Shown one piece after another: positions 10,099 to 42,998 of a DNA stretch of 64,000 bases (its first letter is position 1; each line of letters starts with the position of its first letter). This DNA comes from a candidate division FCPU426 bacterium (GTDB lineage: Bacteria > Oederibacteriota > Muellerivitia > Muellerivitales > Muellerivitaceae), in the NCBI GenBank assembly GCA_963738405.1, contig CAVTWJ010000009.1, positions 256,001 through 320,000 of the forward strand, written 5' to 3'. A model generated the notes under the pieces. It did no database searches, was not told the DNA's origin, and was given only the letters and a program-made list of their open reading frames with translations. Made by a program: the position numbers and the translations under genes.

Positions 10099-10230
10099 AA
10101 TACCCTCCACGGCGGGTTTCCCCGCCTCCGTTAGATAGCTTCCAAAACTCCTCAAGTGCCCCCTGGGCGGGTAAAGTATATCCTTGGAAGAGGGCAGGTT
10201 GGGATACGTTTTGGCGTTGAAATACATTAA

Positions 10231-10374
10231 CAGGGCGCTAAAAAGTGTTTTCAGCGCCCTGTCGACAGCCATGGGTTTGAACGAGCCACAAAAAAAAGGT
10301 TTTTATATTCGTGGCTCGTTCCTAAGTATGAAAAAGTCCAAAAAGTCTAATCTGTGGACTTTTTCAACAACCTG
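10231..10374. mobile_element. MITE-like non-autonomous element with IS5-like ends and TTAA target duplication
   Basis: TTAA|CAGGGCGCTAAAAAGT ... ACTTTTTCAACAACCTG|TTAA; three internal hairpins; no ORF. Confidence 0.6.
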
Positions 10375-10519: not shown

Positions 10520-13500
10520 ATGAAAACCAAAGCTGTTAAACCGGTCCGGTTCGGAGACCGGATCGAACTTGAAATTACCTCCCTGGCCTTCGGGGGGGAC
10601 TCGGTAGGGCGGTACCAGGACTTCGCGATTTTTATTCCCGGAGGTCTGCCTGGGGAAAGGGTGACGGCCCAGATCACCCAGGTGAAAGACCAATTCGCCG
10701 TCGGGAAAATCATCGGGTTCACCCGCCGTTCCCCCGACCGGGTGGAGCCGCCCTGCCCCATTTTCGAGGAGTGCGGGGGCTGCCATTGGCAGCACTTTCA
10801 ATATCCCCGTCAGCTTCAGGCCAAGCGGCAGTTCCTGGTCGACTCCCTGGAGCGCATCGGCAAACTCACGAACGTCACGGTCCAACCCTGTCTTCCCTCG
10901 CCCTCTTCCTACCATTACCGCAACAAGGCCATGCCGGTTACTTCCATGCGGGACGGACATTTCGTGGCGGGCATTTTCGAGCCCCGTTCCCACAAGCTGG
11001 TGCCCTACCAAAACTGTCCCATCCAGGCTGACGCCATCAACGAGCTAATCCAACAGGTGTTAAGGAAGATCGACCGCTCCGGCTTGACGCCCTACCAGGA
11101 AAAATCCCACACGGGATTCATGCGGCACCTGGCCGTGCGCAAGGGCGAGAAAACAGGGGAAATCCTTTTGGCCCTGGTCACCCGAACCGAAATTCCCGAA
11201 GAAAGGGTTCAAACGCCCGATGTGTCCTTGGAATCCCTGCCCGAAATTCTTCCCCGTCTGGCAAAGGAACTGATGGCGGAGGTGCCTCACCTGGTGGGTG
11301 TTTTGCAAAACGTCAACCCCTCCAGAACCAACATCGTCTTTGGGTCCACGACCCGCGTCCTGGCGGGCCGGGACCATTACTTCGAAGAGCTCGACCATCT
11401 GAAGCTGAAGGTCTCGCTGCAATCCTTTCTCCAGGTGAACACCCTTCAGGCCGACCTGCTGCACGAGGTGGTGCGGGAGGCCCTAGGGCGCCCGGAAAAC
11501 GGCGGAAAATGGCAGACGGTTCTGGACCTTTACAGCGGTATCGGCACCCTGGCCCTGGCGGTATCCAACGAGTGCGAATATGTGGTGGGCATCGAGGAAG
11601 TGGGCCCCGCGGTGGAGGATGCCAAGGCTAACCTTTTATTAAACCAGCGGGACAACATCGATTTTTTAGAAGGCGACGTCTCGCAGGTCCTGTTGGGATT
11701 GAAAGAAAAGGGGCTGACCCAGGTGGACGCGGTCATCGTGGATCCTCCCCGCAAGGGCGTGCTGCCCGAGGTTTTGGCCCGGGTGGGAGCCTTGCGGCCC
11801 CAGCGGATGGTCTATGTCTCCTGCGATCCTTCCACCCTGGCGAGGGATTTGGCGCTTTTGGCCAAACACGGCTACGAGGCTGAATGGGCGCAGCCACTGG
11901 ATATGTTCCCCCAAACCTACCATGTGGAGACGGTGGTCCGGCTGACCCGCACCGTGCCCAGGGAAACGATCGATGGATATTCCACCGGTGAAAAACTGGA
12001 ACCCTTCCGACTTCCCCGGGAAGCGGACGCCATCCCAAGCACTTCCTTCATCCAGAACAGCGTCAAGTTTTTAGGAAAAGGGATTATGAGCTTAAGCCGG
12101 GCCCTGAGGTCGGGATGGGCCAAGGCGAGTAAAAACATGACCCGGGCGAACCAATGGGCCGGGAAGGTAGTGGAAAAGTTTAATCCTGCGCGCCCCATGG
12201 AAGAACCCGTGAAGTTGATCCAAGAACCCCCATCTCCTCTTCCTGAACCCAAACCCGTTATGGACCATGAGGAGGCCATCCGGCGGTTTTTGTGGGGTTC
12301 TATCCAGGAAGAGCAATTGACCCAGACGGCTCCGCCTCCCGCCATTTCCATAACCCAAGCCCTAGAACCCGATCCCGTTGTGGAGGATTTTTCGGAAACC
12401 GTCCTTGTTAAGTTCGCCACCATTGAGGAAGCCCTGGAATCCGCCATTCAAGATGAGGCGCCCGAACCGGCGCCCGTTTTAACCATCGAACCAGCCGCTG
12501 TTCCTTCGTCAGCGGCGGAAGAACCCAAACCGGCTGTCTCGGAGGATATGTTTTCGAGGATGGTTTTGGATGGAACCCTTGATTCCAACAGGGCCCAAGA
12601 ACCCATTTCTGAAATGGCAGTCCCTGATAAGCCGGTTTTTAAAAGTGAACTGTCTGGGACGAACCTGGAATCGCAATTTTACTTCCCGACCTTCAAGGCC
12701 CTTTACGCCGCGGCCCAATCCTGGTTGCGGGGGGAAGGGGTCATTTGGGCCTTTTCGTCCCGCCGAATTTGGGGCGCCGCGGGAGCCCTTTTCGGGCTCT
12801 TTCTTTTGGTTTTCCTGGCCAAGGCCACCTTGACGCCCCTCGTTTCCCAACCCGCCATTCCCTTGAAAACCCTGTCCCTGGAAATTCCGGATGTGGTGGC
12901 CTTGATGCCCAAGGGAAGTTACTTGCGCTATGAGATGGTCCCTTTCGAGCTCAAGGTCGACTCGATGAACTACAAGCGTTTCCAAGAAAGCCGCGCCTAT
13001 GTGGAAGTCTTGAGAGACGGAAAACCGGTGACGATGGTGGACGGCCAAACCCGGATGGTTTTGGGAAAGGAATCCGAGGGAAGAAAGTTTTTCGGGAACT
13101 GGCCCATTCCCTATAACCCCCCGCCCGGCACCTATTTGGCCCAGGTGACCCTGGTGGATCCCGAAAGATCCAACCCCCGCGTCTTCCAATCGGCCTTCAC
13201 GATTCCGCCCCTCCAGCCTTCCGGACTGGAACCGGGTTACGCGGTCCTGACCATGGAGGGGGGGAAACAACTGATTAAGGGCGCTGTCCCTTCTTTGGAT
13301 GAAAACGGGGCCATGAGCACCGCAAACGCCATCGATTGGGCCAAGTTCATGGGCGCCAATGTTTTTTGCAACTTGGTGGCCGAAACCGCCATTTGGGACC
13401 GGTTTTACCCGGAGGACTTTCCCTTCAATCGGGAAGAAATGGAAAACGGGCGCAAATACTCCAGCGCCGCGCACTCGGCAGGGCTTAAGTACGCGGCCTA

Positions 13501-14707
13501 CATGACCACTTTCAAAGTCGGCGGGGACGGCTGGCAGCAGGCACCCTACGAATTTTCCTTAGGGTATGACCTCAGCACGGATCAGGTGATCCAGACCCGA
13601 TTCATTTCATTGGATGACCCCAAACGGCAGCAGGACATTTTGGATTTCCTCCAGGCCATGAACAAGGACAACACCGTGGATTACGTGGGTTTGGATTACG
13701 TCCGCACGGGTTTCGCGGGTTATGAACTGGTGGATGAGTTCGTGAAAGATCTGACCATGACCCTGCCGGAGGGGTTCGACAAGATGGCCGAGCCCGATCG
13801 CATCCATTGGCTGGCTCGCACTGTGGAGCATAAAGAGGACAAGCAGGTGGTGGCCCTATTCGAGTGGTGGAGGGCCCACAAGGTGGCCACCATCCTGAAA
13901 AAAATATTGGACGAGGCCAAGATGACCAAGCCCGTTTTCACCTTCACCCTGGGCTGGGAAATGGGGCATCAGCACGGACAGGACCCGGCCATGCTGGTGG
14001 ACGCCGGCATCAACTTCAACCACATCATGCTTTATGAGGGGGACCGCAGCACTATCGAGGACATGAAACACCACTGGCCCAATTACCTTTCACGGGAAGG
14101 CGGTATGTACGTTCCAGGCGAGGAGGTCGATTTCAACATGGTCCAGAAAAGCCTGGACCCTCCCGCGCCCGAGGAGCTTTATAACCGGGAGGTGGAAACC
14201 TTCAATCTCTGGTATGGCTTGAACGCCAACCTGGGAATGTTTTGGCACGACCTCTACCGCCTGGTTTGGGGCGTGAGGGGGCCCTATTCCCGAATGGAGT
14301 GGGCGATTTCGGGAGGGAAAGCCTTCACGACCCTCCGGCAGGCCGAGGGACTGCTGCCGGTAGAGGTGAATTTGATCGCGCCTAAGGAAGCTCCGTTGGG
14401 GGTTTCGGTGCCCCTGACAGTGGACATCCATAACCATTCGGACCACATGATCAAAGGGCTTGTCTTGCGCCAGCTGGACGCCACCAAGGATTTTTACAGC
14501 ACCCTCGCCACTGTGGGGCCCTTGGATGTCTCGCCCGGGATGGTCGTGCGGGTGAAAAGTCTTTTTGTGAACCTGCCAAAGGAAGCCCAGCCCGAGAGGG
14601 ACAATCAAAACATGGCGGCCATTTTGTTGGAAACGCCGGATGACTCGATCCACGCTTTTGATTTTGCCTACCTCAAGGGCCAATCGGGACGTAAGTCCAA
14701 ACCCTAG
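10520..14707 (+). CDS. rlmD: 23S rRNA (uracil-5)-methyltransferase RlmD fused to a linker, TM helix and a large extracytoplasmic GH-like domain
   Basis: TRAM domain, CPIFEECGGC Fe-S motif, DLYSGIG, VDPPRKG, YVSCDPSTLARDL and DMFPQTYHVETV in aa 1-~480, followed by ~915 extra residues. Confidence 0.85.
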   Translation: MKTKAVKPVRFGDRIELEITSLAFGGDSVGRYQDFAIFIPGGLPGERVTAQITQVKDQFAVGKIIGFTRRSPDRVEPPCPIFEECGGCHWQHFQYPRQLQAKRQFLVDSLERIGKLTNVTVQPCLPSPSSYHYRNKAMPVTSMRDGHFVAGIFEPRSHKLVPYQNCPIQADAINELIQQVLRKIDRSGLTPYQEKSHTGFMRHLAVRKGEKTGEILLALVTRTEIPEERVQTPDVSLESLPEILPRLAKELMAEVPHLVGVLQNVNPSRTNIVFGSTTRVLAGRDHYFEELDHLKLKVSLQSFLQVNTLQADLLHEVVREALGRPENGGKWQTVLDLYSGIGTLALAVSNECEYVVGIEEVGPAVEDAKANLLLNQRDNIDFLEGDVSQVLLGLKEKGLTQVDAVIVDPPRKGVLPEVLARVGALRPQRMVYVSCDPSTLARDLALLAKHGYEAEWAQPLDMFPQTYHVETVVRLTRTVPRETIDGYSTGEKLEPFRLPREADAIPSTSFIQNSVKFLGKGIMSLSRALRSGWAKASKNMTRANQWAGKVVEKFNPARPMEEPVKLIQEPPSPLPEPKPVMDHEEAIRRFLWGSIQEEQLTQTAPPPAISITQALEPDPVVEDFSETVLVKFATIEEALESAIQDEAPEPAPVLTIEPAAVPSSAAEEPKPAVSEDMFSRMVLDGTLDSNRAQEPISEMAVPDKPVFKSELSGTNLESQFYFPTFKALYAAAQSWLRGEGVIWAFSSRRIWGAAGALFGLFLLVFLAKATLTPLVSQPAIPLKTLSLEIPDVVALMPKGSYLRYEMVPFELKVDSMNYKRFQESRAYVEVLRDGKPVTMVDGQTRMVLGKESEGRKFFGNWPIPYNPPPGTYLAQVTLVDPERSNPRVFQSAFTIPPLQPSGLEPGYAVLTMEGGKQLIKGAVPSLDENGAMSTANAIDWAKFMGANVFCNLVAETAIWDRFYPEDFPFNREEMENGRKYSSAAHSAGLKYAAYMTTFKVGGDGWQQAPYEFSLGYDLSTDQVIQTRFISLDDPKRQQDILDFLQAMNKDNTVDYVGLDYVRTGFAGYELVDEFVKDLTMTLPEGFDKMAEPDRIHWLARTVEHKEDKQVVALFEWWRAHKVATILKKILDEAKMTKPVFTFTLGWEMGHQHGQDPAMLVDAGINFNHIMLYEGDRSTIEDMKHHWPNYLSREGGMYVPGEEVDFNMVQKSLDPPAPEELYNREVETFNLWYGLNANLGMFWHDLYRLVWGVRGPYSRMEWAISGGKAFTTLRQAEGLLPVEVNLIAPKEAPLGVSVPLTVDIHNHSDHMIKGLVLRQLDATKDFYSTLATVGPLDVSPGMVVRVKSLFVNLPKEAQPERDNQNMAAILLETPDDSIHAFDFAYLKGQSGRKSKP

Positions 14708-14926
14708 CGGATGTACCTAATTTCCCGCCGACCCCTTGATGATGAGGGTCATAGTGGCCAAACCCTTTAAAGTTAAAACCCTTCATGAAAGGGTTTTACT
14801 GAGATTGGAAAAGTTCAAGCGTTTTAAAAGTTACATGGCTGTTCCTTGAAAAAAAAACTAACGTCCCTCTCGGCCTTTTAGTAAAATACCCCGGCTTTGC
14901 TCCTTTATCCCCCGCACGAGGTTGAT

Positions 14927-15694
14927 ATGTTTTCCCCGAAACTGAACGCCTTGCTGGGGCTCTTTTTGGTTTTTCTCCTGGCCGGATGCGGAGCGGTTTT
15001 CATCAATCCCGGTTCTTCCCAATCCTCCCTGCGCGAGGGCCTTTCCAACCCCGATCTCAACAAGGTAAAGGTCGCCGTTCCCCACGACCAATCCGTGATT
15101 TGCAATTTCGATGATGGCACCAAAAACACCAATTCCAAACTTTATGGGAAATCGGGCGGAACCTGGTTTGATTTTTCCGAAGGGGGCAATGTCCCGAACG
15201 CGGTTTTTATCGTTCCGGGAGGCGCCAACGGCTCCGCCATGGCCGCCCATATTTTCGGCTCCTTGACGGATAAGGGTGATAAGTCCTATCCCGCCTTCTC
15301 GATTCAGGGCAAATTCACCGCCAGCGGCAACTACGACGCCAGCGCCTTTAACGGAATTCAGTTTTATTACAAATGCCCTGCGGACGACCAGGCCGTCAAA
15401 CGCCGTTTTGTCATCGCCACGGTGCCCACCCTGCCCTCTGAAAACGGCGGAACCTGCGTTTCGGACTGCTACAACCATTTTGGGGCCATGATGTCCCAAA
15501 CCAACGATTGGAAACTCTGTTCCTATAAGTTCACCGAATTGACCCGGGAACAGGGGTGGGGTTCTCCCGTAACCCCCCCCGATTTGATCGACCACCTCAA
15601 GGAATTCGTCTATTTAGAATGGGACCAAAGCGGGGACAACAACGCCGGGACCTACGCGATTGATTATTGGGTGGATGAGGTCGAATTTTTCTAA
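14927..15694 (+). CDS. Lipoprotein with CBM11/CIA30-like carbohydrate-binding domain
   Basis: Lipobox LLAGC; ICNFDDG, YDASAFNGIQFYYK, GGTC..DCYNHF, YWVDEVEFF; RBS GAGG. Confidence 0.75.
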   Translation: MFSPKLNALLGLFLVFLLAGCGAVFINPGSSQSSLREGLSNPDLNKVKVAVPHDQSVICNFDDGTKNTNSKLYGKSGGTWFDFSEGGNVPNAVFIVPGGANGSAMAAHIFGSLTDKGDKSYPAFSIQGKFTASGNYDASAFNGIQFYYKCPADDQAVKRRFVIATVPTLPSENGGTCVSDCYNHFGAMMSQTNDWKLCSYKFTELTREQGWGSPVTPPDLIDHLKEFVYLEWDQSGDNNAGTYAIDYWVDEVEFF

Positions 15695-15703
15695 GATCTT
15701 TGA

Positions 15704-18451
15704 ATGTTGTTTGATCAACTTGAACCCAAGGGATGGATTTTGAAAATCAAGTTTTCAATCTTTTTGGCGGTGTTAACGGGGTGCGGTGTTTTATTGCCGA
15801 CGGGCCGTCTTTGGGCCAACCCTTATGAGGAAGTCACCTCCGATGAGGCGGTTTATCAAAGGGTCAAGCACCTGGAGACCTACGGCCTTTTGGATCCTAC
15901 CGACCAGCAGGTTTTGGATCAGGGAAAAATCGTTACCCGGATGGAACTTGCCTTTTATACCGAAAAGGCCAAGGCCCGCATTGAGGCCCCCATGTTAGGC
16001 CCCGCGCCAGTCCCCGGTGCCCTAACGGTCCCGACACCCGAAATCACCATTCCCTCTAACCTTGAGGTTTTGCCGCCTACGCTTCCGACCGCCACCCCGG
16101 TTTCTGCCGCTCCCACCCCTGCCGTGCCCGAGCCTGTGGTTCCCTCGACTCCCGAAGTTCCCACGGCTATTCCGACCCTGGCGCCCAACTATCCCCCAGC
16201 CGCTAAGGCCGAAATTGAGCAGCTTTTAAAAGAACTCAGTGACTCCACCCAGATTTTAAAAACCCGTTTGGCCTTGGAAGACGAACGCTTGAAAGACCGG
16301 GAAGCGGAATTGGAAAACCTCAAAACCGTTCAGGATGACGTGGATAGCGTCTGGAAAAAAGCCAACAAATCGGTGGGGATTCCTAATTTCAACACCAATA
16401 CCAATACCCGCTTCGAGAATTTGAACATCTCCGGCATCGCCTCGCAAAGCGCCACCAAGATTTTGCAGGAAGCCTGGGTGGGCATGTACACCGATTTAGG
16501 GGGCGTGGGCACCCTTTCCACCGGCTTCGGCATGATCCTTCCCTTCGATAATTACTCGGCTAAGGTTCAGGTGGCGGGCGTAGGAACAGCCCCGGCTTCC
16601 ATCTACCTCGGCAACCCGAGCGCCAACTTCCACCTTTACGGCGACTTGGGCAAGTGGGACACCACCTTCGCGGTGGAATGCTACCAGCCGGACACCACCT
16701 TCGGGCCCTTCAGCCGGGGCATCGCCAATACCGCCATCAAGCGTTTTGAGAACCCTTTTGACATCAAAAACTTCAACGACGACAAGAACGCCAAAAACTG
16801 GGACGACTACATGTCCCAGGTCAGCTATGTCCCCGCCTACTCGGCCAACGCGGGAAACGTGCAATCCGCCAGCGACCGGGTGTTTGACGGCATGTACGCG
16901 ACAGGGCGGCAGGTGCCCTGGCTGGGGCCGGACGGGCGGATGACTTTTATGGTGGGCCGCATGGGGGAAACCCCGACCCAAACCCAGCGGTGGGAAGAGG
17001 GCCTGAAGATCGACCAGCCCTGGGCCGACAGCCTGGTGCGCACGTCGGTGGCTGTAGAATGGATCAATGACAATTTCGGGGTCGTGCAGCCCCTTCAGCC
17101 CCAGTTGGATTTGAAAGATTACGAAGCCGATATCCACTTAAACCTGAACGCGGTGCAGGTGGACTTCGACGGCGGATTCTCTCATTTCTATACCGGCTCC
17201 GAAATAGCGGGGCCCGTTTACCTGAACACGGGCAACGCCATCGTGGACAACAGCGCTATCGAGTCGGGCGCGGGCCAGGCCTCCATCGCCTTTTACCCCT
17301 TCACGCTTTTTGGGTTCGCCATCGGCGACACCTACGCCGATTACCAAAGCAAGGTCACCATGAGCGGGCTTAACTTTTTCCATTACGGACTCTATTTCAA
17401 TCCCAGTGATTTTAACGACGTGTACGGGGCCATCGGGGAAGTGGACAATCTTCAAACCGACCGATACGGCTGGCGTTTCAACTTTGGGTGGAATGGGCGA
17501 AAACAAGAGTTCATGAAAAAGTGGCCGTCTTTCCTGGATGGTATCGTGATCAACTTGGATGTGGCGCAAAAGTCGGAATTCGTTTCCGTTCAAGACCCCA
17601 TGGGCTACAACACCATCGAGCCCTCGCAATTCTTAAGTTTTTACTACCCCGACGACGAGGGTCTTTGGGGCTTGGATATGTGGGGAAACTATTCTCCCAA
17701 CGTCAACCCGATCCGTCAGGACTACATTAACAACATTCAAAGCCTAAGAAACGACGGGGATATCTTGAACGATGACGCAAGGTACCAGTTCCGCATGACC
17801 TCCGAGCGCCTCCCCTTGATTCTTCCTATCTATAACAACGGCGGCACCCTCAGCCTCGCCCCCGCCAACCCGAACCAGGCCCCCGCCACCTACACGAGCG
17901 GCCTTTCCAAGGGCTACAACGAGTACGCTAACCTGCAGGATCTTAAAAGCTACAACTACATCACCCTCACCACCAAGCTCAAGGTGGGGCAATGGTTGAA
18001 TTCAAATCCCCTGGATCTTTCCTTCTTCATGACGATCAACCAGGTTTCCGCCTCCAGTTCCAACGCCTATAGCTACTTGAACCCCAACCTGGCGGGCTCC
18101 GCTACAACAGCCTCCCCGGGCTCCCCCTCTTCCACCTCCCCCTCGGTTTTTTCAGACAATATCCCGAACCTTTTCACCCAGCAGGTGTTTGACGGCGCCA
18201 TCATGATTAATGTGGTTAAAGACCTGGATTTGATGGGCGACATCGGCGTGGAAACCTGGAACTCCAATTACACCTACCCGCTAGTCAATTACCAAACCAA
18301 CGCCTACGGCCTCGGATTCGCATGGGACCTTCCCTGGGGCGGCGGCAAGATGGAATGGCGATATAAACATATCGATTTCGCGGACGCCTACGTGCCCGCC
18401 AATGATTATTCGGGCGACCAGTTTTTCACCAAAATTAAATTCATGTTTTAA
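15704..18451 (+). CDS. SLH-like + Pro-rich + coiled-coil + beta-barrel outer-membrane protein (paralog 1)
   Basis: Signal peptide; ANPYEEV...AVYQRVKHLETYGLL...TRMELA (SLH-like); acidic coiled coil; beta-rich C-terminus ending KIKFMF. Confidence 0.7.
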   Translation: MLFDQLEPKGWILKIKFSIFLAVLTGCGVLLPTGRLWANPYEEVTSDEAVYQRVKHLETYGLLDPTDQQVLDQGKIVTRMELAFYTEKAKARIEAPMLGPAPVPGALTVPTPEITIPSNLEVLPPTLPTATPVSAAPTPAVPEPVVPSTPEVPTAIPTLAPNYPPAAKAEIEQLLKELSDSTQILKTRLALEDERLKDREAELENLKTVQDDVDSVWKKANKSVGIPNFNTNTNTRFENLNISGIASQSATKILQEAWVGMYTDLGGVGTLSTGFGMILPFDNYSAKVQVAGVGTAPASIYLGNPSANFHLYGDLGKWDTTFAVECYQPDTTFGPFSRGIANTAIKRFENPFDIKNFNDDKNAKNWDDYMSQVSYVPAYSANAGNVQSASDRVFDGMYATGRQVPWLGPDGRMTFMVGRMGETPTQTQRWEEGLKIDQPWADSLVRTSVAVEWINDNFGVVQPLQPQLDLKDYEADIHLNLNAVQVDFDGGFSHFYTGSEIAGPVYLNTGNAIVDNSAIESGAGQASIAFYPFTLFGFAIGDTYADYQSKVTMSGLNFFHYGLYFNPSDFNDVYGAIGEVDNLQTDRYGWRFNFGWNGRKQEFMKKWPSFLDGIVINLDVAQKSEFVSVQDPMGYNTIEPSQFLSFYYPDDEGLWGLDMWGNYSPNVNPIRQDYINNIQSLRNDGDILNDDARYQFRMTSERLPLILPIYNNGGTLSLAPANPNQAPATYTSGLSKGYNEYANLQDLKSYNYITLTTKLKVGQWLNSNPLDLSFFMTINQVSASSSNAYSYLNPNLAGSATTASPGSPSSTSPSVFSDNIPNLFTQQVFDGAIMINVVKDLDLMGDIGVETWNSNYTYPLVNYQTNAYGLGFAWDLPWGGGKMEWRYKHIDFADAYVPANDYSGDQFFTKIKFMF

Positions 18452-18456
18452 CGGAA

Positions 18457-20763
18457 TTGAGAACATTGAGACCCAAAGCGCTGTTTAAAAAAACCTTCAC
18501 CGCCGCCTGGCTCCTTTTGGGGCTGGTCCTGCCCGCTTGGGCCGAGCATGGCCGTTTGGCCACGACCCAACGCGACCCTTGGATCAATGCGGCGGCTGAA
18601 AACCTGATTTTGTCCGGTATGGTTGCCGACCCCGGCAAGAATCCCGATCAGATGACCAACCTGGAAATGGCCCAATTGACCGCCAAGGCCTCCCAAATGA
18701 TCATGGCCCAGGCCGACCCAAACCTCCTGCCGATCCCCCTGGACGTCGATCCCGGCCTTCCCGAGCCCACCCTGCCCGCCGCTCCGGCGCCGGCTCCGGT
18801 TTTAAGCGCCGCCGCCATGCCGGATCAGGTGGTTCCCTCCAAAAATCTGCAGCAATTGGTGGAAGAGTTCGCGGAGGAACTGACGGCCATGGGGCTTCAG
18901 GTGGACCAGATTGAGCAGCGCCTGGATGACGCGGAAATCCGAAATGAGGTATTCGCCGCCCTTCAGAAAAAATACCTGACCCAATCAGGAACCGAAGTGG
19001 GCGGGGAATCGCGCGGTTTCATGTATCAGTACCGGGGCTTCGGCACCAACGCCGCCTATCCGGCGATGGACTATAACGCGGCCATCTACATGCAAATGGA
19101 CCTTCGAAGCGTGCCAGTCCCCGACGTTCTTTTTAACGTCAGCTTCCGGTTCTGGCGATCGATCGGTATGTACTACCAGGATCCGATCCAACCCAATTAC
19201 CAGCTGCGCTGGTTCAGCCTCGCTGGCTATGGCGACGCGGCCACCATCACGGGCGGTGATTTTTACAAGAGCTACACGCCCTTCACCCTTTGGAACGCCA
19301 ACACCCCCGTTTATACCCTGATCGAACCGACCTCCTTTAATCGGGTGCGCAACGACCAGGAGGATCTTCTTTACCTCAACCATGGAACGGACTGGAAACT
19401 CCGGGGCTTTCACGGGGCCGTGGGCCAAGCCTGGGGCACCAGTTGGGACTTGAGCAGTTATAACGTAGATACCATGGTGGGGGTCATGCAGGACCCGGGC
19501 GACAACATCGGAGCCATCAGTTTCGGCAATTATTTCGCGGGGAGCCAGGCATCGCTCGGGTTCCTCCAGCAGAATCTTTTTCTGGGAGCTACGGGCCTTC
19601 TGCTTTGGCAGGATTCGGGCAGCGCCAATGTGCCTTATTTCCCAGACTATCCGGATAATTACGCCAAGCAATACCAGGTGGGAAGCGTTTGGTCCAAGGC
19701 GGGCATTCCCTTCGATGAAAACGTCAAGCTGACGGGCGCTTTCGAGAGCGCCTTCAGCCAATATGACGACGATTCCAGCGACGCCAACAAGACTTTCCAT
19801 GATTGGGCCCTTTCGGCGGAAGGCGCCCTGGAAGTCTACGGGCTGAAGCTCTCGGCCAAGTACTTGAACGTGGGTCCCTACTTCTATTCCCCCGGCGCCC
19901 AAGCTAACCGCTATTCCCCCGACTCCGCGGCCCAGGGTTATTTGACCACCAACCTAACCGGATTGGATGACGGCGCCCCCGGGCTTCTCAACCAAAGCCC
20001 CTTCCAGGGTGTGAACCGCCCCTTCTTCGCCCCCTATGACAGAACCGCCGAAAATATTCTTCCCTACGGGGATGCCACTCCCAACCGCCAGGTTTTCAAG
20101 CTGGGTCTTTCCGGAGCCGTGGGGGAGAGGGGCTGGCTCCAACCCAAGGCGTCGGTGGTCATCAACGCCCAAGAAATAGCTCCCAACTATGTTTTAAATG
20201 CCTTGGGCATTGGCTCGATCCCCGTGGATAGCCAAACCAACACCACCGTGGGCCGGACCTTCGGTGGGTGGGAGGGCGCCCTCGCTTTGGATTTCGCAAA
20301 GATGGCGAACCTGCCTGGAAAAACCTACGACGTCCAATTCGACTATAAAAATCAAACCACCGATTTAGGCATCGGCGCGGCTCCCTTTACCTCGAATACG
20401 ATCATCGGCGGCGCGGATTTTAACATTCCCGTCCGGGCCCTTTCTTCCCTCGTTTGGTCGGCGGCCTTTGAGCAGGTTCAAAGCACCGGCAGCGAATACG
20501 TTTTGACCGGCCAAGGCAATCCACCCGATTTGGGCCAATATGTTTTTTACGTGGACCCCTATTCGGCCACCAGCACCATTCCCCAATTCACCTACCAGGC
20601 CTTGAATTTGACCCGGCAAACCTGGGCCTTCGGGGTGAAATATCCCTTGAGCAGCCTCGTGAATATCCGCATGGATTGTTTCTTTACCAGCTACAACTGG
20701 GCCGACCAACCCTGGGACCGTAATGATGAAATTTGGAGATTCACTTATGAAGCCCATTATTAA
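18457..20763 (+). CDS. SLH-like + Pro-rich + coiled-coil + beta-barrel outer-membrane protein (paralog 2)
   Basis: Signal peptide; DPWINAAAENLILSGMV...MTNLEMAQLTAKA; LQQLVEEFAEELTAMG coil; ends RFTYEAHY. Confidence 0.7.
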   Translation: MRTLRPKALFKKTFTAAWLLLGLVLPAWAEHGRLATTQRDPWINAAAENLILSGMVADPGKNPDQMTNLEMAQLTAKASQMIMAQADPNLLPIPLDVDPGLPEPTLPAAPAPAPVLSAAAMPDQVVPSKNLQQLVEEFAEELTAMGLQVDQIEQRLDDAEIRNEVFAALQKKYLTQSGTEVGGESRGFMYQYRGFGTNAAYPAMDYNAAIYMQMDLRSVPVPDVLFNVSFRFWRSIGMYYQDPIQPNYQLRWFSLAGYGDAATITGGDFYKSYTPFTLWNANTPVYTLIEPTSFNRVRNDQEDLLYLNHGTDWKLRGFHGAVGQAWGTSWDLSSYNVDTMVGVMQDPGDNIGAISFGNYFAGSQASLGFLQQNLFLGATGLLLWQDSGSANVPYFPDYPDNYAKQYQVGSVWSKAGIPFDENVKLTGAFESAFSQYDDDSSDANKTFHDWALSAEGALEVYGLKLSAKYLNVGPYFYSPGAQANRYSPDSAAQGYLTTNLTGLDDGAPGLLNQSPFQGVNRPFFAPYDRTAENILPYGDATPNRQVFKLGLSGAVGERGWLQPKASVVINAQEIAPNYVLNALGIGSIPVDSQTNTTVGRTFGGWEGALALDFAKMANLPGKTYDVQFDYKNQTTDLGIGAAPFTSNTIIGGADFNIPVRALSSLVWSAAFEQVQSTGSEYVLTGQGNPPDLGQYVFYVDPYSATSTIPQFTYQALNLTRQTWAFGVKYPLSSLVNIRMDCFFTSYNWADQPWDRNDEIWRFTYEAHY

Positions 20764-23389
20764 TACCCAGCGCCGAATCGGCGCCCTGGTTTTCCTTTTC
20801 GCCCTGGGGTGGGCCTTTTCCGCCCTCGCGTCGGATACTTTGTTTTCTGTGGTGCCCGCTGGCGATGCCACCTATATGAAGCTGGGCCAATTGGAAAAGG
20901 CAGGTCTTCTGAACCCAGGAGATTCCCAGGGACCCTTAACCCGATTTGAAGTGGCCCATCTGATCAACAAGGCCCAAGGAAATATGTACGGCATTGAAGT
21001 GGCGCAGTTAGATGAGATCCCGCCGCCTCCCGATTCGGGGGCTCCCGCTCCTCCGTCTTCTTCTCCGGCACCTGCAGCCGCTCCCGCGAACGCGGCCCCT
21101 GCGCCTGTTGCCGCCGCAGGCGATGACTCCAGCATTCCGCCCCCGCCTGACTCTGGTACCGCCGCTTCCCCGGCCGCTGCCCAACCCGCGCCTGCTCCGG
21201 CTCCCGCCGCCCCAGCTCCCTCGGATGCCACCCTGCTTCCACCCCCGGATATGGGCGCGGCTCCAGCGATACCATCCCTTCCGGACACTGGCACCGCGCC
21301 ACCTCCGCCCCCGGCTCCCGATACCACGGCGCCCGCCGTTGCCGCCCCGGCCGCTCCAGCGCCTGCTGAGGCCACGGCAGTCCCGACCCCTTCAGCGACC
21401 CCGGAAGATCCAATGAAATGGGCCAAGTTGGCTGAGACCCTCAATAGCCTGGAGGACGCCTACCAGTATGAATTGAAAGACATCAAGGCGCCGGTCAATG
21501 ACCTCAACGACAAAACCCAGGCCCTGGAAAACGGCCAATATGACCTTTTGAAAAGGCTCAAAGGCATCGATGAATATCCCACCATCACCTGGCATGGCAT
21601 CGGTAGGGTCTTCGGGGCCGCCCAGCGTTTCACCAGTTCAGACCCGGGCTATACCCCTCCGCAAAACGATAATTTCCAGGGAAGAGGCTATATCGATTTC
21701 GAGCCCGTGGGCGTCATCGGCAAACAGATTCGTTGGGAATTGATCGTGCGTTACGGGACGGCCATGGTGGCCAATGATTCCCAGGCCATAGATAGCTTCC
21801 TACCCCGCCGGGGAACCATGGAACTCAAGACCCCCTGGTTTAGCGCCACCTTTGGGGATTTCGATGAGTCCTACACGCCCCTGACCCTTTGGAACCGTAA
21901 CAACCTAGATTTGCGCTGGGTTCCGGAAATGATGGCGCGGGAAGACGACACCTTGAAGTATGAGAGCTTCATGAACAACGAACCCAATTGGCCTTTTAGG
22001 GGCCTGCGCCTGGGTACGGAAATCGCCTGGCCCGACTCCACCTGGTTTGACCATTTCAACCTCTCCCTTATGGGAGATATTTTGCGAAACGGGTACAACG
22101 ACCTTTCCAGCGGGGGCAACTATTTTGGTCCGGGATTCTTCACCGACTATCTCTTCGCCGGAAAAACCCAATTGGCTACCAAGAGGCTTTTTCTAGGCGG
22201 TAACAGCAGCCTGAAATTTTCCTTTGACGCCTATGGGTTATTGTTATGGGAACCCATCTCAAGCCAAATGCCTGGAAGCCCCTACACGCCTTACGGCCCC
22301 ACCAATTGGGCCCACCAATACCAGATCTTCAGCTTGAAGCCTTCTTTCGAGGTATCCATGGGAGACGGTGTAGTGTTGGGCGGGTCCTGGGAAAGCGCGG
22401 GTTCGCTTTACGAGGATGATTCCCAAAACAGCACATCGAACGTGACCGATTGGGCCTTCATCGCGGGACCTTACTTGAAACTCGACCATTCCATCCTCTC
22501 CTTCAATTACCTGAACATCGGCCCGAATTTCTTCTCCCCCCTGGCCCAGACCCGCCAGGACGGGGTAACCACAGCGTTAAGCTTCAACCCCGCTAGCGGC
22601 CTGCCCACACCGGAGCTTTTTTCAGCCCCGCTCCGAAGCCAGTTTTTCCTTGCCGGGGTGCCCCGGGCCAACGATATCTTTTCATTCTATGACCGCACTG
22701 AAGACAATACCTTCCCCTATGGCTTGGCTACCCCCAATCGCCAAGGCGGGGGCATGGAATTGGACATCAAAACGTTGGAAAAAGACGCTTTTAAGATCAA
22801 TGGCTCGGTTTACTTCGTTCAGGAAATCGGTGGTAACCTTGTCTCGAGCTCCGGTGTGAACGGGTTCGTTGCCGTGGACGCCCCGGTGACCGCGACCATT
22901 CCGGTGCGTAATTTCACCTACGTGAACATTGGGCCTTCCATCAACCTGGGCCCCTTCATCGATGATCCGGAAGATTTGGTGATCGGGACGAACGTACGCT
23001 TTGAACAAACCAACAGCTCCATCGGAACCCTCACCAGCGTTTGGGCCTTGGGCGGGGTAGAAGCGGGCTTGTTTTCTTGGTGGCACACGGCCCTGTCTTT
23101 CGGGGTGGATAACGTGAGCGGATCGGAAGCGGGTTACAACGGAACCACGATGGCCCGGTATTCATACCTATTCAACAACCAGGATTTGGGACTTTACCAG
23201 CCTTTTACCATCAACGGCACCAATAACAGCCTCCGGCTGTCGACGGCCTTTACATTGAATCGGAACTCCAAGCTGTACCTGGATTACGATTACACCTTTG
23301 GCAACGCGGTTCCTTATTTCGGCACGACCCCCAACGGGGGCAACCTGAACAACCAGTTCGCGGAGTTAACTTATGAAATCCTCTTCTAA
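20747..23389 (+). CDS. SLH-like + Pro/Ala-rich + coiled-coil + beta-barrel outer-membrane protein (paralog 3)
   Basis: Signal peptide; FSVVPAGDATYMKLGQLEKAGLL...LTRFEVAHLINKA; coil; shares YTPxTLWN, YLNxGPxFxSPxAQ and PYGxATPNRQ with paralog 2; ends LTYEILF. Confidence 0.72.
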   Translation: MKPIINTQRRIGALVFLFALGWAFSALASDTLFSVVPAGDATYMKLGQLEKAGLLNPGDSQGPLTRFEVAHLINKAQGNMYGIEVAQLDEIPPPPDSGAPAPPSSSPAPAAAPANAAPAPVAAAGDDSSIPPPPDSGTAASPAAAQPAPAPAPAAPAPSDATLLPPPDMGAAPAIPSLPDTGTAPPPPPAPDTTAPAVAAPAAPAPAEATAVPTPSATPEDPMKWAKLAETLNSLEDAYQYELKDIKAPVNDLNDKTQALENGQYDLLKRLKGIDEYPTITWHGIGRVFGAAQRFTSSDPGYTPPQNDNFQGRGYIDFEPVGVIGKQIRWELIVRYGTAMVANDSQAIDSFLPRRGTMELKTPWFSATFGDFDESYTPLTLWNRNNLDLRWVPEMMAREDDTLKYESFMNNEPNWPFRGLRLGTEIAWPDSTWFDHFNLSLMGDILRNGYNDLSSGGNYFGPGFFTDYLFAGKTQLATKRLFLGGNSSLKFSFDAYGLLLWEPISSQMPGSPYTPYGPTNWAHQYQIFSLKPSFEVSMGDGVVLGGSWESAGSLYEDDSQNSTSNVTDWAFIAGPYLKLDHSILSFNYLNIGPNFFSPLAQTRQDGVTTALSFNPASGLPTPELFSAPLRSQFFLAGVPRANDIFSFYDRTEDNTFPYGLATPNRQGGGMELDIKTLEKDAFKINGSVYFVQEIGGNLVSSSGVNGFVAVDAPVTATIPVRNFTYVNIGPSINLGPFIDDPEDLVIGTNVRFEQTNSSIGTLTSVWALGGVEAGLFSWWHTALSFGVDNVSGSEAGYNGTTMARYSYLFNNQDLGLYQPFTINGTNNSLRLSTAFTLNRNSKLYLDYDYTFGNAVPYFGTTPNGGNLNNQFAELTYEILF

Positions 23390-24293
23390 ACGGCGAAAAA
23401 GCCTTTTAGGCAAAAAAAACGCCAGGCCCGTTTTATTAGGCTTGGGGCTTCTTTGGGCTGTGGCCGCGGGATTATTAGTGATCATCGGCTGCCAAAACAG
23501 CATCCCCCCCCTGGGAACCTATGGAGCCCCTGTTTCCCAGGTCAACCGAGACTTGGTGGCCGATTTCAGCTTGAACGGATTAATTCCCTATAACACCCCT
23601 TCCGTCTTGCCCGTCCAATCCATTACTGGGCCTGTACTTGACAGCACCGGCAAACCGGTATTGAGCTACCCGATCAATCCCAACCTCTTTGAAAACAACA
23701 ACCCGCCTACCTACACCATCAAAAACCAGGGCGCGGTGACGCTCCTCAACAATTTCGCGGCCTACCTTAATTTCTTTTCCTGGGGGCTTTACGGCCCCGG
23801 GGCCAATGGGGCCCCTTACGGTTACCGTGTTTACGGCACCGTGACCGACAAGGGGGACGCAGCCTTCCCCGAAATGGACATTTGCGCTTACATGGAATCG
23901 GGCGGCGCCTTCTATGACGCCAGCAACTTTACCGGGGTCGATTTCTATCTTAAGGTCGCCAGCGACGACACCTGCCTGGAACGGCATTTCGAGATACCGG
24001 TTTTCCAAACCACCGCGCCGACGGAAGGGGGAGGATGTCAGGCCGGGCCCCACCTTTGCTCGGACCATTTCTCGGCCGACGTTACCTCGGGCACCGGCGG
24101 ACAGTGGGAATTCTTCAGGTATAACTTCAGCGACTTGAAACAGCTGGTGCCAGGGGCCATTCCCGATCCACCCACCTTGAGTGGAAACAACCTCAAGCAG
24201 ATGATGTGGCTGGTATGGATGGGGGCCCGAAACAACAAGGCGGGCACTTCCACCGTGGACATTTCGGTGGATGACGTGGAATTTTTCAAATAG
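23373..24293 (+). CDS. Lipoprotein with CBM11/CIA30-like domain
   Basis: Lipobox VIIGC; FYDASNFTGVDFYLK, GGGC....CSDHF, ISVDDVEFFK; clear paralog of 14927..15694. Confidence 0.72.
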   Translation: MKSSSKRRKSLLGKKNARPVLLGLGLLWAVAAGLLVIIGCQNSIPPLGTYGAPVSQVNRDLVADFSLNGLIPYNTPSVLPVQSITGPVLDSTGKPVLSYPINPNLFENNNPPTYTIKNQGAVTLLNNFAAYLNFFSWGLYGPGANGAPYGYRVYGTVTDKGDAAFPEMDICAYMESGGAFYDASNFTGVDFYLKVASDDTCLERHFEIPVFQTTAPTEGGGCQAGPHLCSDHFSADVTSGTGGQWEFFRYNFSDLKQLVPGAIPDPPTLSGNNLKQMMWLVWMGARNNKAGTSTVDISVDDVEFFK

Positions 24294-24345
24294 TGATAAA
24301 CTTTTAAAGAAGGGCCCAAGGGCGTTTTGGGCGGGAGGCGTCTCA

Positions 24346-25278
24346 ATGAAAAAACAATGGTTTGGGATAGGACTAGGGGTCTTAGGTGTCGTCTTGGCCG
24401 CCCTTCCTCTATTACTTTCCCAGGGTTGCAATAGTACCAACCCAACACTATCCTCCGTGGTTCCCACCCCTTCGGTTAACGGTATGGTTAGTAATTTCGC
24501 GCAAGGTTCCCTTAACACCTACCCAGCCTTTTCCTCAACCGGCTATTTCAACTACCAAGTCACAGGTGGCGCCCCGGGCTTCCCCAACATGATCGACGGT
24601 AGCAGCACGCCTTATATTTTGGAGCCCAACCCCAATCCCGCCCCCGGCGGAAGCCCCTACGCCATCCACATTTGGGGGGTCCAGACCGATTATTGCCCGC
24701 CTTTTAACCCCAACAATTGCACCAATCCCCAATGCACGGGTTACCCCGCCTACCAAACCTTTTGCTACCTGAAAAACGACCCGGCGAATCCCCTTTACGA
24801 TGTTTCGGGATATACGGGAATCGAATTTTGGATGAATATTCCCCCCAAAGTCGTATCCGGCGGGGTAACGACGGGAGACGCTAATCCCCAGGAACGGTTC
24901 GCTATCGGGGCCGCTCCCGAAGTGCCGACCACCACCGACCAGGGCGGTCTTTGCCCCCCTCCCTTCGGCACCAATTGCTATAACTATTTTTGGTATCAAA
25001 CCAAGCTGGGACCCACGCCAGGTTGGAAGCAATTTCAAATCCCCTTTTCCATGCTGAAGATGGACGCCGGATACGCCTATATCGGAGGCGGCGCCTCTGC
25101 GGCGCAGACCTTGATGCCCGGAAGCGCGGTGGCCTTCAACTACACGGGGCTTAACAAGGGAGGGACCAACTGTAATTTCGAGAAACAGGCGCTTTTCCTT
25201 CTCTGGAAATTTACCGATAACGGTGCTTGTGGTACTACCAACACTGATTACTGGATCGATAACGTCCAGTTCTATTAA
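24346..25278 (+). CDS. Cys-rich lipoprotein with CBM11/CIA30-like domain
   Basis: GGAGG RBS; lipobox LSQGC; YDVSGYTGIEFW, GGLC...NCYNYF, WKQFQIPFS, YWIDNVQFY. Confidence 0.72.
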   Translation: MKKQWFGIGLGVLGVVLAALPLLLSQGCNSTNPTLSSVVPTPSVNGMVSNFAQGSLNTYPAFSSTGYFNYQVTGGAPGFPNMIDGSSTPYILEPNPNPAPGGSPYAIHIWGVQTDYCPPFNPNNCTNPQCTGYPAYQTFCYLKNDPANPLYDVSGYTGIEFWMNIPPKVVSGGVTTGDANPQERFAIGAAPEVPTTTDQGGLCPPPFGTNCYNYFWYQTKLGPTPGWKQFQIPFSMLKMDAGYAYIGGGASAAQTLMPGSAVAFNYTGLNKGGTNCNFEKQALFLLWKFTDNGACGTTNTDYWIDNVQFY

Positions 25279-25295
25279 ACCCAAACAATCACTCG

Positions 25296-25326
25296 GGCGG
25301 TCCCTGTAAAAGGGGCCGCCTTTTTT
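25296..25326 (+). terminator. Terminator ending the barrel/lipoprotein operon
   Basis: GGCGGTCCCT-GTAAA-AGGGGCCGCC-TTTTTT. Confidence 0.85.
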
Positions 25327-25427
25327 GTTTTATCCCCTTTTCGGGCGCCAAACCATTCTTCTTTTTCGCAAAACCCTCGCCTATACTAGCCCCCTTTGAA
25401 ATAAGCCATTCGGGAAGAGGATTTTAA

Positions 25428-27227
25428 GTGTCTCTGGAACATATCCGCAATTTCTGCATCATCGCCCACATCGACCACGGCAAAAGCACCCTGGCCGACC
25501 GGCTTTTGGAATTCACGGGGGCCATCCCGCCCCGTGAAATGCGCGAACAGCTCATGGACCAGATGGATCTGGAACGGGAGCGGGGCATTACCATCAAGGC
25601 CAAGGCGGTGCGTTTTTTCTACAAGGCCAAGAACGGCCAAACCTACGAGATGAACCTGATCGACACGCCCGGCCATGTGGATTTTAATTACGAAGTTTCC
25701 CGAAGCCTCAAGGCCTGCGAGGGAGCGCTCCTCCTGATTGACGCTTCCCAAGGGGTGGAAGCCCAGACGCTGGCTAACGCCTTTTTGGCCATGGACCAGA
25801 AACTCACCATTGTTCCCGTCATCAACAAGATCGACCTGCCCGCCGCCGACGTGGAGCGCTGTAAAAAACAGATGGAAGAATCCCTCGCCATCGAGGGGTC
25901 GGAGGCCATTTTAGCCTCGGCCAAGGAAGGGATCGGCATCGAGGAAATATTGGAGGCGGTGGTAAAGCGTGTTCCCGCCCCCATCGGCAACGCGGAGGAG
26001 CCCTTGAAGGGCCTGATCTTTGATTCGATGTACGACATTTACCGGGGCGTGATGATCTTTGTGCGCATCTTGGAAGGCAAGATCGAGAAAAACACCAAGA
26101 TGAGACTGATGGCCACCGGCAAGGTTTTCGAGGTGGAAGAAGTCGGCGTCTTCAAGCCCAAGATGGAAAAGACGGGCATTCTTTCGGCCGGGGAAGTAGG
26201 CTATATCGCCGCCAATATCAAAGAAGTGCGCGACGCCAAGGTAGGCGAGACCGTGACCGAGGAAGGCCGGCCCACGGCCGAGGCCATGCCGGGTTTTAAA
26301 GATGTTTTGCCCATGGTCTTTTGCGGGCTTTTTCCGGTCGTCTCGGATGATTACGACCATTTAAAGGAAGCCCTCTCCAAACTCAAACTATCCGACGCGG
26401 CGCTCTCTTACGAGCCCGAGACCTCGGTGGCCCTATCCTTCGGTTTCCGATGCGGCTTTTTGGGTCTTCTTCATATGGAAATCGTTCAGGAACGGCTGGA
26501 GCGGGAATACAACCTCAATCTCATCTGCACCGCCCCCAGCGTGGTGTACAAGGTCGTGAAAACCGACCGCACCGAGATCATGATCGACAACCCCACCAAA
26601 CTTCCTGATCTCTCGCAGATTGAGGAAATTTTGGAACCCTATATCGACGGCAAGATCATCGTGCCAGCCGATTACATTGGGGCCGTCATGACCCTTTGCC
26701 AGGAACGGCGAGGAATCCATAAAAATACCCATTTTCTCGATACTACGAGGGCTCAGATCACCTACGAGCTTCCCTTGGCCGAGGTGGTGATGGATTTTTT
26801 CGACAAACTCAAGAGTTGTACCAAGGGTTACGCGTCTTTAGATTATGAGCCCATCGGCTACCGCCCGGGCGATATCGTGAAGGTCGACATCCTCTTGAAC
26901 GCCGAGGTGGTGGACGCCCTTTCCTTCATGGTGCACAAGCAAAAATCGGAAATCCGGGGCCGGGGCATCGCCGAAAAACTGAAAGAAATTATCCCCCAGC
27001 AGCTCTTTGAGGTGCCCATCCAGGCCGCCATTGGGGGCAAGATCATCGCGCGGGAAACGGTTCGGGCCCGCCGCAAGGACGTTTTGGCAAAATGCTACGG
27101 CGGTGACATCACACGAAAGCGCAAGCTGCTGGAAAAGCAGAAGGAAGGCAAAAAGCGAATGAAGAACATCGGGAGCGTGGAGATACCCCAGGAAGCTTTC
27201 ATGGCCGTGTTGAAGGTGGAGGACTAA
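25428..27227 (+). CDS. lepA: Translation elongation factor 4
   Basis: [53 protein letters not shown]. Confidence 0.98.
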
Positions 27228-27248
27228 TAACTCGAAAAAAATCCGTTT

Positions 27249-27340
27249 AACTACATGACACCAAGTCGCCAAGGAAAAAAATTAAAGATTAGGGTTTTGT
27301 TATTTATGGTTTTCTTGGTGTCTTTGTGACTTGGTGGTGA
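27249..27340. repeat. Degenerate CACCAAG-unit palindrome related to 3244..3333
   Basis: …GACACCAAGTCGCCAAGGAAA and TTTCTTGGTGTCTTTGTGACTTGGTGGTGA. Confidence 0.75.
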
Positions 27341-27399
27341 AAAGTTTCTTCTTTGTAGGGATGATTGTTTTTAGGTGAATATCTCGGTGAAAAGGATTT

Positions 27400-41073: not shown

Positions 41074-41187
41074 AATTTGGTGGTATCTTTCATTGTGTGG
41101 TATTAGTTTCAGGCCTGTAAACAGTTGAAATTCGACCCAGCAGCTGACTTTAAACACTGCCCCAATGAGCGCGGGAAGAGGATTTTC

Positions 41188-42795: not shown

Positions 42796-42876
42796 CGGCG
42801 CGAGCTCCGAAAATTTTCAGAAAAACGGAATGGGCTTAAGTAGTTGGCGCACCAAACAAAAACATAAAAACAATTT

Positions 42877-42938
42877 AGCCACAGATGCACAAGATGCATT
42901 GGATGAAGGCTAAAAACAAATCCCATTTATCTGTGGCT
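42877..42938. repeat. CACAGATG-unit intergenic palindrome
   Basis: AGCCACAGATGCACAAGATGCATTGGATG ... ATCTGTGGCT. Confidence 0.65.
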
Positions 42939-42998
42939 TAAAAACCCCTTGCGGGGGTTCAGTTTAAAATCCGTCGCAATTTGTAAATAATTTTGGAC

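Follow-up and report, generated by a model that had tools for sequence, protein, structure and literature searches.

A stalked outer-membrane barrel operon of a candidate division FCPU426 bacterium related to the atypical polysaccharide utilization locus of Cytophaga hutchinsonii

The chu_1276-1280 cluster of Cytophaga hutchinsonii has been reported as an atypical polysaccharide utilization locus (PUL) for three related Bacteroidota (PMC12016534). Its outer-membrane protein CHU_1279 binds cellulose and is required for growth on cellulose, with a cellulose-binding domain whose closest fold is the carbohydrate-binding module CBM11 (6R3M), and chu_1276 and chu_1277 are likewise required for growth on cellulose (PMC12016534). 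A second reference point is OmpM1 of Veillonella parvula (PDB 8bys, 8bym, 8bz2), a homotrimer of 16-stranded general porins; surface-layer homology (SLH) domains act in threes, and OmpM1 obtains three of them via a triple coiled coil (PMC10628300). We examined a six-gene operon in a 64,000-nucleotide window of the genome of a candidate division FCPU426 bacterium (contig CAVTWJ010000009.1) and found that, judged from profile comparisons, it is a distant relative of the chu_1276-chu_1279 cluster, with the same descent.

The operon consists of six plus-strand open reading frames (ORFs) in the order LP1, B1, B2, B3, LP2 and LP3, with 9 bases between LP1 and B1, 5 bases between B1 and B2, and overlaps at the remaining junctions. 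The ORF coordinates and a single terminator-like hairpin bear out the initial annotation, which had described six tightly packed, co-oriented genes (lipoprotein, three barrels, two lipoproteins) closed by one terminator. The features are as follows.

LP1, 14927..15694, + strand: 255 aa lipoprotein (Cys21) with a single predicted CBM11/CIA30-like beta-sandwich (residues ~49-255) and a conserved Cys pair.
B1, 15704..18451, + strand: 915 aa; signal peptide, SLH-like domain (15809-15997), Pro-rich spacer, coiled coil from ~16205 and predicted CHU_1276-subfamily barrel.
B2, 18457..20763, + strand: 768 aa; signal peptide, SLH-like domain (18544-18726, with Asn replacing the TRAE arginine), spacer and coiled coil from ~18838.
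B2 barrel part, within 18457..20763, + strand: CHU_1277 subfamily, modelled with 22 strands, without an N-terminal plug and with two long conserved loops.
B3, 20723..23389, + strand: 888 aa; SLH-like domain (20828-20998), long Pro/Ala spacer, coiled coil from ~21431 and predicted CHU_1277-subfamily barrel, sister of B2.
LP2, 23373..24293, + strand: 306 aa lipoprotein (Cys40), LP1 paralogue (34% over 163 aa).
LP3, 24271..25278, + strand: 335 aa lipoprotein (Cys53), LP1 paralogue (23% over 284 columns).
Intrinsic-terminator-like hairpin, 25295..25321, + strand: 11 pairs (8 G-C) and a T tail, ending the six-gene set before lepA.

The true starts of B3 and LP3 are probably the ATG codons at 20747 and 24346, respectively. 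The hairpin was the strongest among 31 terminator-like sites in 12000-28000; the shuffle mean was 25.4 sites, so that only its strength and position count. We detected no Pfam match for the six proteins at E 0.1, and Pfam and NCBIfam together returned only a Pro-rich artefact and a faint por_somb match (E 0.077) that falls in the B2 coiled coil. There was no glycoside hydrolase (GH) among the six genes.

The relationship to C. hutchinsonii was reached through the second barrel. A full-library profile search with B2 orthologues arrived at a family of ~570-aa proteins, one member of which lies, in a Cytophagales record, between the gene of a 709-aa barrel and a lipoprotein gene. As this order recalls chu_1276-chu_1280, we searched 26 loci with a fingerprint of published residues of CHU_1279 (375 aa; Q48, W89, F92, F180, E204, E212, Y253, F256, F343 and Q375; PMC12016534). 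At one locus (L104) a 375-aa protein carried 10/10 of these residues at offset 0 and two orthologues of it scored 8/10, the other ORFs of the 26 loci reaching at most 5 with free offset. Taken by locus, four of five loci including L104 scored 10, 8, 8 and 5 of 10, and the best score in the 21 further loci, of Cytophagales, was 5/10, none of these being accepted as a match. Genes of 747, 606 and 380 aa lie 5' of the CHU_1279-like gene of L104 and a GH9 gene lies 3' of it; they were taken as CHU_1276, CHU_1277, CHU_1278 and CHU_1280 because of their position around that gene.

A profile of 15 B2 sequences alone matched 26/26 CHU_1277-family proteins. Profile-profile comparison with the CHU_1277 family gave 99.85% for B2 (469 columns) and 99.71% for B3 (503 columns), and B2 shared 21.7% identity over 471 positions with the 606-aa protein of L104. 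For B1, we used a bridging profile, built on 20 first barrels that came from other families within the phylum and included neither of the two groups: it matched B1 (99.6% over 723 columns) and, at 99.9% over 566 columns, the CHU_1276 family, and the two B1 copies ranked top among the ORFs of the genome. By these profile matches, B2 and B3 are homologues of CHU_1277, and B1 belongs, via intermediates, to the CHU_1276 family. The comparison with cellulose-utilisation outer-membrane proteins of C. hutchinsonii, which the initial annotation had proposed, thus uncovered homology, and the 'undescribed' system of that annotation gives way to relatives of a published atypical PUL; an orphan family was rejected on the same homology.

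The two systems share homologous barrels in the same order, CBM11-like-fold lipoproteins after them, absence of SusC/SusD and, at many loci of the barrel family, glycanase neighbours. They differ in that each barrel here carries a stalk of SLH domain, Pro-rich spacer and coiled coil, the CHU_1277-type gene is duplicated, and three single-CBM lipoproteins (one of them upstream) take the place of the two two-domain ones of Cytophaga (PMC12016534). Moreover, the window operon belongs to another phylum and lacks a GH9 gene, whereas a second copy in the genome does adjoin GH44.

We next considered the barrel proteins themselves. The three had been annotated as paralogues with C-terminal residues F/Y/F and Pro-rich spacers; the residues and the spacers (23, 14 and 43 Pro in residues 90-240) were found as described, and paralogy was clear for B2 and B3 (BLAST E 7e-34), but B1 is a distant paralogue, its BLAST similarity to B3 being restricted to the SLH domain (E 5e-4). 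The AlphaFold2 model of B2 (141-sequence alignment; pLDDT 89.5, pTM 0.80) agrees with the predicted C-terminal barrel fold. From the N-terminus it has two short helices, a disordered Pro-rich spacer and a 54-residue helical stretch entering strand 1, followed by 22 long strands (counted from the DSSP list) with long loops after strands 5 and 13. Before strand 1 we looked for a plug domain and found the helices instead, and B1-B3 had no match to the Pfam plug models. A barrel in B3 is supported by its full-length homology to B2 (profile-profile 100%, 738 columns), and the C-terminal region of B1 is predicted to be a beta-barrel from homology. Among 54 barrels from several phyla, 11 of the 13 residues conserved in at least 85% of sequences sit in or at the two long loops of B2. 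Conserved loop residues of B2 include Q482, P536, G538 and R544. The two loops, the longest conserved ones, would presumably fold into the pore and narrow it.

Fold searches with the B2 model returned generic barrels throughout (6-14% identity) and no specific solved relative; the best VIA match was the SusC barrel BT1763 (Z 14.1, 382 aligned), level with porins. Likewise, OmpM1 (8bym; Z 13.3, 260 aligned, rmsd 7.0) was level with unrelated barrels, and no specific kinship to the OmpM barrel was seen. The N-terminal part did agree with OmpM: a profile from 41 N-terminal segments picked up the SLH of OmpM1 from V. parvula at E 5e-13 and, weakly, the Sap SLH (E 0.009). The SLH-like motif annotated in each barrel protein was therefore confirmed by profile, except that B2 has TNLE in place of TR.E. 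A coiled-coil heptad pattern is present in B1, B2 and B3. One SLH domain, a coiled coil and a C-terminal barrel per chain is the architecture of OmpM1 and of SlpA/SomB-type tethers (PMC10628300). The operon proteins differ from OmpM1 in the 22 strands of B2, the unequal SLH motifs, the Pro-rich spacer, the loss of the GYPDG-type SLH loop and the dedicated CBM-like lipoproteins. An ordinary OmpM paralogue array was rejected given the descent of the barrels and the lipoproteins.

All three lipoproteins contain a lipobox Cys (C21, C40 and C53) and the three motifs quoted in the initial annotation (YD.S.[FY].G[IV].F, GG.C…C..[HY]F and [VI]D.V.F[FY]), the first of which is found in 5 of the genome's 13,526 ORFs, each a member of this lipoprotein family. 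LP1, immediately 5' of B1, is the most conserved of the three. Its model (pLDDT 83.9) is a beta-sandwich, and the closest structures were those of Clostridium thermocellum CBM11 (PDB 1v0a, 6r31, 6r3m; Foldseek E 3e-8; VIA Z 16.9, rmsd 2.9, 161 aligned), with 6R3M, the entry named for CHU_1279, among the top three matches. The CBM11-like fold proposed for the lipoproteins thus finds support in LP1, and LP2 and LP3 presumably share it by paralogy. Next after CBM11 came the non-sugar-binding CIA30 fold (Z 15.2). LP1 differs from CBM11 of C. thermocellum in its low identity (16-17%), extra Cys pair, lipid anchor and lack of a Pfam CBM_11 match. PDB sequence searches with LP1 and with the lipoprotein profile returned nothing (for the profile, no chain at E 1). 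The lipoprotein profile did match, with 38 bits, the CBM domain that the secreted glycanase at 46216-49599 carries. When the B1 barrel and LP1 were predicted as a complex, the score was 0.00 and no answer resulted.

We then examined how the family is distributed. Of 99 genomes from the phylum, 76 matched the barrel profile, 65 of them with an E no higher than 1e-30. In four of the 11 genomes with weak matches (E ~1e-10) the matches were checked and corresponded to other barrel proteins without the SLH motif, and all 11 were for this reason kept out of the strong count. The barrel family was also present in 42 of 251 Cytophagales, and the commonest phylum among its look-alike clusters was Fibrobacterota. 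Gene order agrees with the conserved co-localisation that had been predicted: within the taxonomic family and order, 51 of 54 fetched loci have B1-B2-B3, the other three being broken by contig ends, 41 have LP1-B1-B2-B3 and 19 the complete six-gene pattern. In 28 of the 54 the operon occupies the same place as in the window, between an RlmD fusion and lepA-lepB-hemN-hrcA, which we call the core locus. Among the 26 non-core loci, 15 have a Pfam GH neighbour (GH44, GH2, GH31, GH29, GH5, GH42-like), four have a CBM, esterase, sugar-binding or sugar-kinase gene instead, four show no carbohydrate gene among the chosen scanned neighbours and three are fragments outside the scan; several of these loci are orthologous, so the counts are not independent. 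In other families of the phylum, a GH neighbour was found in 11 of 15 loci with scanned neighbours. The glycan role that had been suggested is consistent with these glycanases adjoining the extra copies. It is also in line with the presence of GH9 in 56 of the 65 genomes that match the barrels strongly, against 8 of the 34 others, although the genomes are kin and not independent.

The second copy of this genome (C2:92664-100654; L001 7936-19687) is an LP1-B1-B2-B3 cassette in a PUL-like region, with a GH44 lipoprotein on one side and LacI, galactokinase, xylose isomerase and xylulokinase-like genes on the other. Near it, at C2:103811-109000, we observed a further lipoprotein of the family and a sugar-binding-like protein. 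In the window, a dozen housekeeping genes separate the operon from the glucanases at 41-49 kb. In four of five relatives the core locus is followed, 16-27 kb downstream, by a homologue of the 46 kb glycanase, and the contig of the fifth stops before that point. Such conservation of gene order does not prove that the glycanase is coupled to the operon. In a tree of 54 B-type barrels (334 columns), B2 and B3 formed sister clades (support 1.0 each, 0.83 for the sister relationship) within which core and accessory copies interleave. The deeper nodes lack resolution and the root is a midpoint, so we claim no donor or direction. The copy in the window is thus the core one, and the extra copies are probably substrate-specific loci.

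Other members of the barrel family were seen outside this arrangement. L032 (6610-14026, genome G029) has three barrels, one CHU_1276-type and two CHU_1277-type, with lipoproteins upstream; its B copies fall outside the B2/B3 groups, possibly reflecting an independent duplication. At L120 (6742-10494, G332) a barrel pair without SLH or long stalk occurs within the phylum, as in Cytophagales. Two Cytophagales barrel pairs (L098 and L100) lie among polysaccharide-synthesis genes (sugar-nucleotide dehydrogenase-, epimerase- and acyltransferase-like) rather than glycanases, and an export role for some members is possible. The loci L171-L174 encode 650-790 aa proteins that begin with Ig-like domains and end in a barrel with weak similarity to the family, three of them between FecR-like and HIT genes, and their host families lack the cassette. 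Finally, P0145-P0186 form a clade (support 1.0) of 635-710 aa barrel-family proteins with a short coiled coil and no SLH, whose atlas look-alikes point to Fibrobacterota.

Taken together, the operon is probably an outer-membrane capture-and-uptake complex for plant-glycan oligosaccharides of the beta-glucan, xyloglucan or xylan type, sharing its descent with the atypical PUL of C. hutchinsonii and probably working like it. In this scheme, secreted or surface glycanases, enzymes present in the genome whose coupling to the operon we infer, would cut the polymer to oligomers. LP1-3 would then bind the glycan at the surface by a CBM11-like cleft (modelled for LP1) and hold it near the pores, their binding, location and barrel contact being assumed by analogy with CHU_1279. 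One CHU_1276-type and two CHU_1277-type barrels would pass the oligosaccharide by diffusion, with no TonB plug; the missing plug is the sole ground for supposing TonB-independent uptake. The three coiled coils would bundle and unite the three single SLH domains as a wall-binding trimer, for which B1-B2-B3 would be the leading composition. The scheme resembles the SusC/SusD pair of Bacteroidota (TonB-dependent transporter and surface glycan-binding protein SGBP-A) in barrel strand number, surface glycan-binding lipoproteins and PUL-like accessory loci. It differs from that pair in lacking a plug and a SusD fold, LP1 being a beta-sandwich, and no sequence relationship was found. A SusD search of the genome (90.7% complete) gave 0 matches, and a diverged SusCD was rejected for want of both plug and SusD.

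Several observations weigh against a glycan uptake complex of Cytophaga type. The core locus has no annotated GH adjoining it and housekeeping neighbours instead. Pfam CBM_11 matched 0 of 32 lipoproteins at E 0.1, and Pfam SLH matched 0 of 41 N-terminal segments. Direct comparison of B1 with the CHU_1276 family was weak (36%, 470 colinear columns), as was that of the lipoproteins with the CHU_1278 family (34%, profile-profile), and the lipoproteins had no sequence match to the CHU_1279 family (3%, profile-profile). Barrels and GH9 also occur apart, in both directions: two genomes, G015 (99% complete) and G033, keep barrels without GH9 or GH5 at the thresholds used, and family f5 has GH9 in 5/5 genomes and no barrel match. 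As for CHU_1276 and CHU_1277, the accessible text of PMC12016534 gives growth defects and a title on glucose uptake, not a direct demonstration of transport.

The foremost alternative is that the core copy is chiefly an OmpM-like outer-membrane tether and general porin, the accessory copies alone importing glycan and the lipoproteins serving as adhesins. OmpM1 is tether and general porin at once (PMC10628300), and such a function would suit the housekeeping neighbourhood of 28 of the 54 loci, the barrel match in 30/30 other genomes of the family and the retention of the core copy by G015 in spite of its missing GH9 and GH5. It would also suit the restriction of this SLH-like motif, within the genome, to six barrel proteins, B1-B3 and the second triad, with no Pfam SLH match and no Pal over the cut-off across the genome. 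Nevertheless, the barrels descend from the CHU_1276/1277 family and are not recognisably OmpM, the core copy retains three CBM-like lipoproteins, and core and accessory B2 and B3 interleave on the tree. Six OmpA-domain matches provide the genome with other wall anchors, and the barrel pair of L120 and those of Cytophagales occur without SLH, while several two-barrel loci fall below the SLH-profile threshold. We consider a chiefly tethering role unlikely.

Somewhat less probable still is that the barrels import no sugar and form a scaffold at the surface, by which glycanases and CBM lipoproteins are anchored, displayed or exported on the substrate. Many proteins of the genome have a C-terminal domain like that of type IX secretion (T9SS; 36 ORFs by a motif of our own), and there are two PorV matches. 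Against a scaffold stand the poor growth of chu_1279 and chu_1276 mutants on 0.1% glucose (PMC12016534), which points to uptake, the ABC sugar-binding proteins and sugar catabolic genes adjoining several accessory loci, and the two longest conserved loops of B2, which would narrow a pore. A glycan importer that TonB/ExbBD would energise via the stalk or via a plug protein separate from the barrels is very improbable: 22 strands is the TonB-dependent size, the SusC barrel was the top VIA match (tied with porins) and the genome has 4 TonB, 5 ExbB/MotA and 7 plug matches, but the B2 model has no plug domain, no TonB or plug match lies at either barrel locus and the Cytophagales proteins lack any stalk.

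Returning to uptake by a tethered complex, the coiled coils and single SLH domains imply a trimer, and we asked which chains it would contain. Each of B1, B2 and B3 has one SLH domain. At the position of the TRAE arginine, B1 has R in 40 of 47 sequences and K in 7, B3 has R in 48/48 and B2 has N in 52/52, so that a B2 homotrimer would carry no arginine. The same pattern of two motifs with arginine and one without (TRAE, TVEE, TRAQ; here TRLE, TNLE, TR[FY][ED]) occurs in SpaA of Paenibacillus alvei, in which the groove lacking Arg is non-functional; in SpaA the three repeats belong to a single chain of a monoderm S-layer protein (PMC6081394), and here they are on three outer-membrane proteins. 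Coiled-coil indels are rare (0/52 rows for B2, 3/48 for B3, 1/48 for B1) and the spacers vary widely. In a consensus reading, the coiled coils of B2 and B3 are in register and that of B1 exceeds them by about one heptad; the polar residues kept in the core are particular to each chain.

The unequal SLH arginines and fixed coiled-coil lengths favour a fixed hetero-assembly without demonstrating it, and we regard a B1-B2-B3 heterotrimer as having slightly less than an even chance. Three different chains are not required, which counts against it: of the 27 loci from other families within the phylum, 25 have only two barrels (CHU_1276-type, then CHU_1277-type), a single one has three and another is fragmentary. 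The stalk is present in most of them, and two-barrel loci would need 1:2 mixes or homotrimers. A more tentative proposal, with perhaps one chance in three of being correct, is that in the Cytophaga-type, SusCD-free importer one CHU_1276-type barrel and two of CHU_1277 type, all 22-stranded, make up an asymmetric trimer. In the present lineage the second gene would have been duplicated, giving every position a chain of its own (B1-B2-B3), and an OmpM stalk grafted on, rebuilding over three chains the unequal three-groove anchor of S-layer type. If true, a 1:2 stoichiometry of CHU_1276 to CHU_1277 is predicted in the cultivable Cytophaga. We know of no earlier heterotrimeric outer-membrane channel combining envelope tether and glycan importer, and a literature search for OmpM, SLH and heterotrimer found no paper. 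The genome has one pyruvyltransferase match, in a polysaccharide gene cluster, which is at most a candidate CsaB.

Upstream of the operon lies the following gene.

RlmD fusion, 10520..14707, + strand: RlmD followed by a linker, a hydrophobic helix and a 635-aa domain resembling GHL10-type glycoside-hydrolase barrels (lead only).

This is an RNA methyltransferase with what is probably a periplasmic domain. The fusion is kept in 23 of 23 loci showing rlmD, and its 635-aa domain is 45-87% identical among relatives. The GHL10-type likeness (atlas 0.87) is a lead only, there being nearer clusters in Spirochaetota and Elusimicrobiota, and the domain profile had no match in PDB or Pfam. Elsewhere in the window we found a 549-aa beta-rich probable outer-membrane protein (8623-10272, - strand) and a 260-aa anchored protein (7762-8544) after a LacI gene (6624-7652), both single-copy in the genome and without a Pfam match, as well as a DUF1207 tandem pair of probable outer-membrane proteins (53812-55636) preceding a PolC-type polymerase gene. 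At 41125-49599, a T9SS-type domain forms the C-terminal end of a GH5 protein and of two arabinofuranosidase-like ones; the 36 ORFs fitting our motif and the two PorV matches suggest T9SS-like secretion in the lineage.

The CBM11, GH5, GH9 and GH44 content accords with the Goldbacteria/FCPU426 lineage of PMC7031533, whose accessible text has no mention of 'outer membrane', 'porin' or 'SLH'. Similarly, the accessible part of the OMPdb paper names no such family (PMC9581022). We found no paper on SLH-bearing CHU_1276/1277 homologues or a third barrel in a search that did not extend to the first reports on CHU_1276 and CHU_1277, to subscription journals or to the supplements of a bioRxiv tether survey (10.1101/2021.05.31.446380). 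As far as the sequences tell, the system is of a known, poorly understood kind, that of the C. hutchinsonii atypical PUL, and what is new is the SLH/coiled-coil stalk on all barrels and the third barrel.

The finding touches the open problem of how cellulose products pass the outer membrane in cellulolytic bacteria without cellulosomes or SusCD. The barrel family is now placed, beyond three related Bacteroidota, in an uncultured phylum (65 of 99 genomes), in Cytophagales and in look-alike clusters. The stalk provides a stoichiometry, and the loops conserved residues, that are testable in C. hutchinsonii, and it suggests how such importers may be assembled. If the lineage is a Gracilicute, an OmpM-type stalk beside OmpA-domain proteins and TonB systems would blur the published divide between OmpM and Pal.

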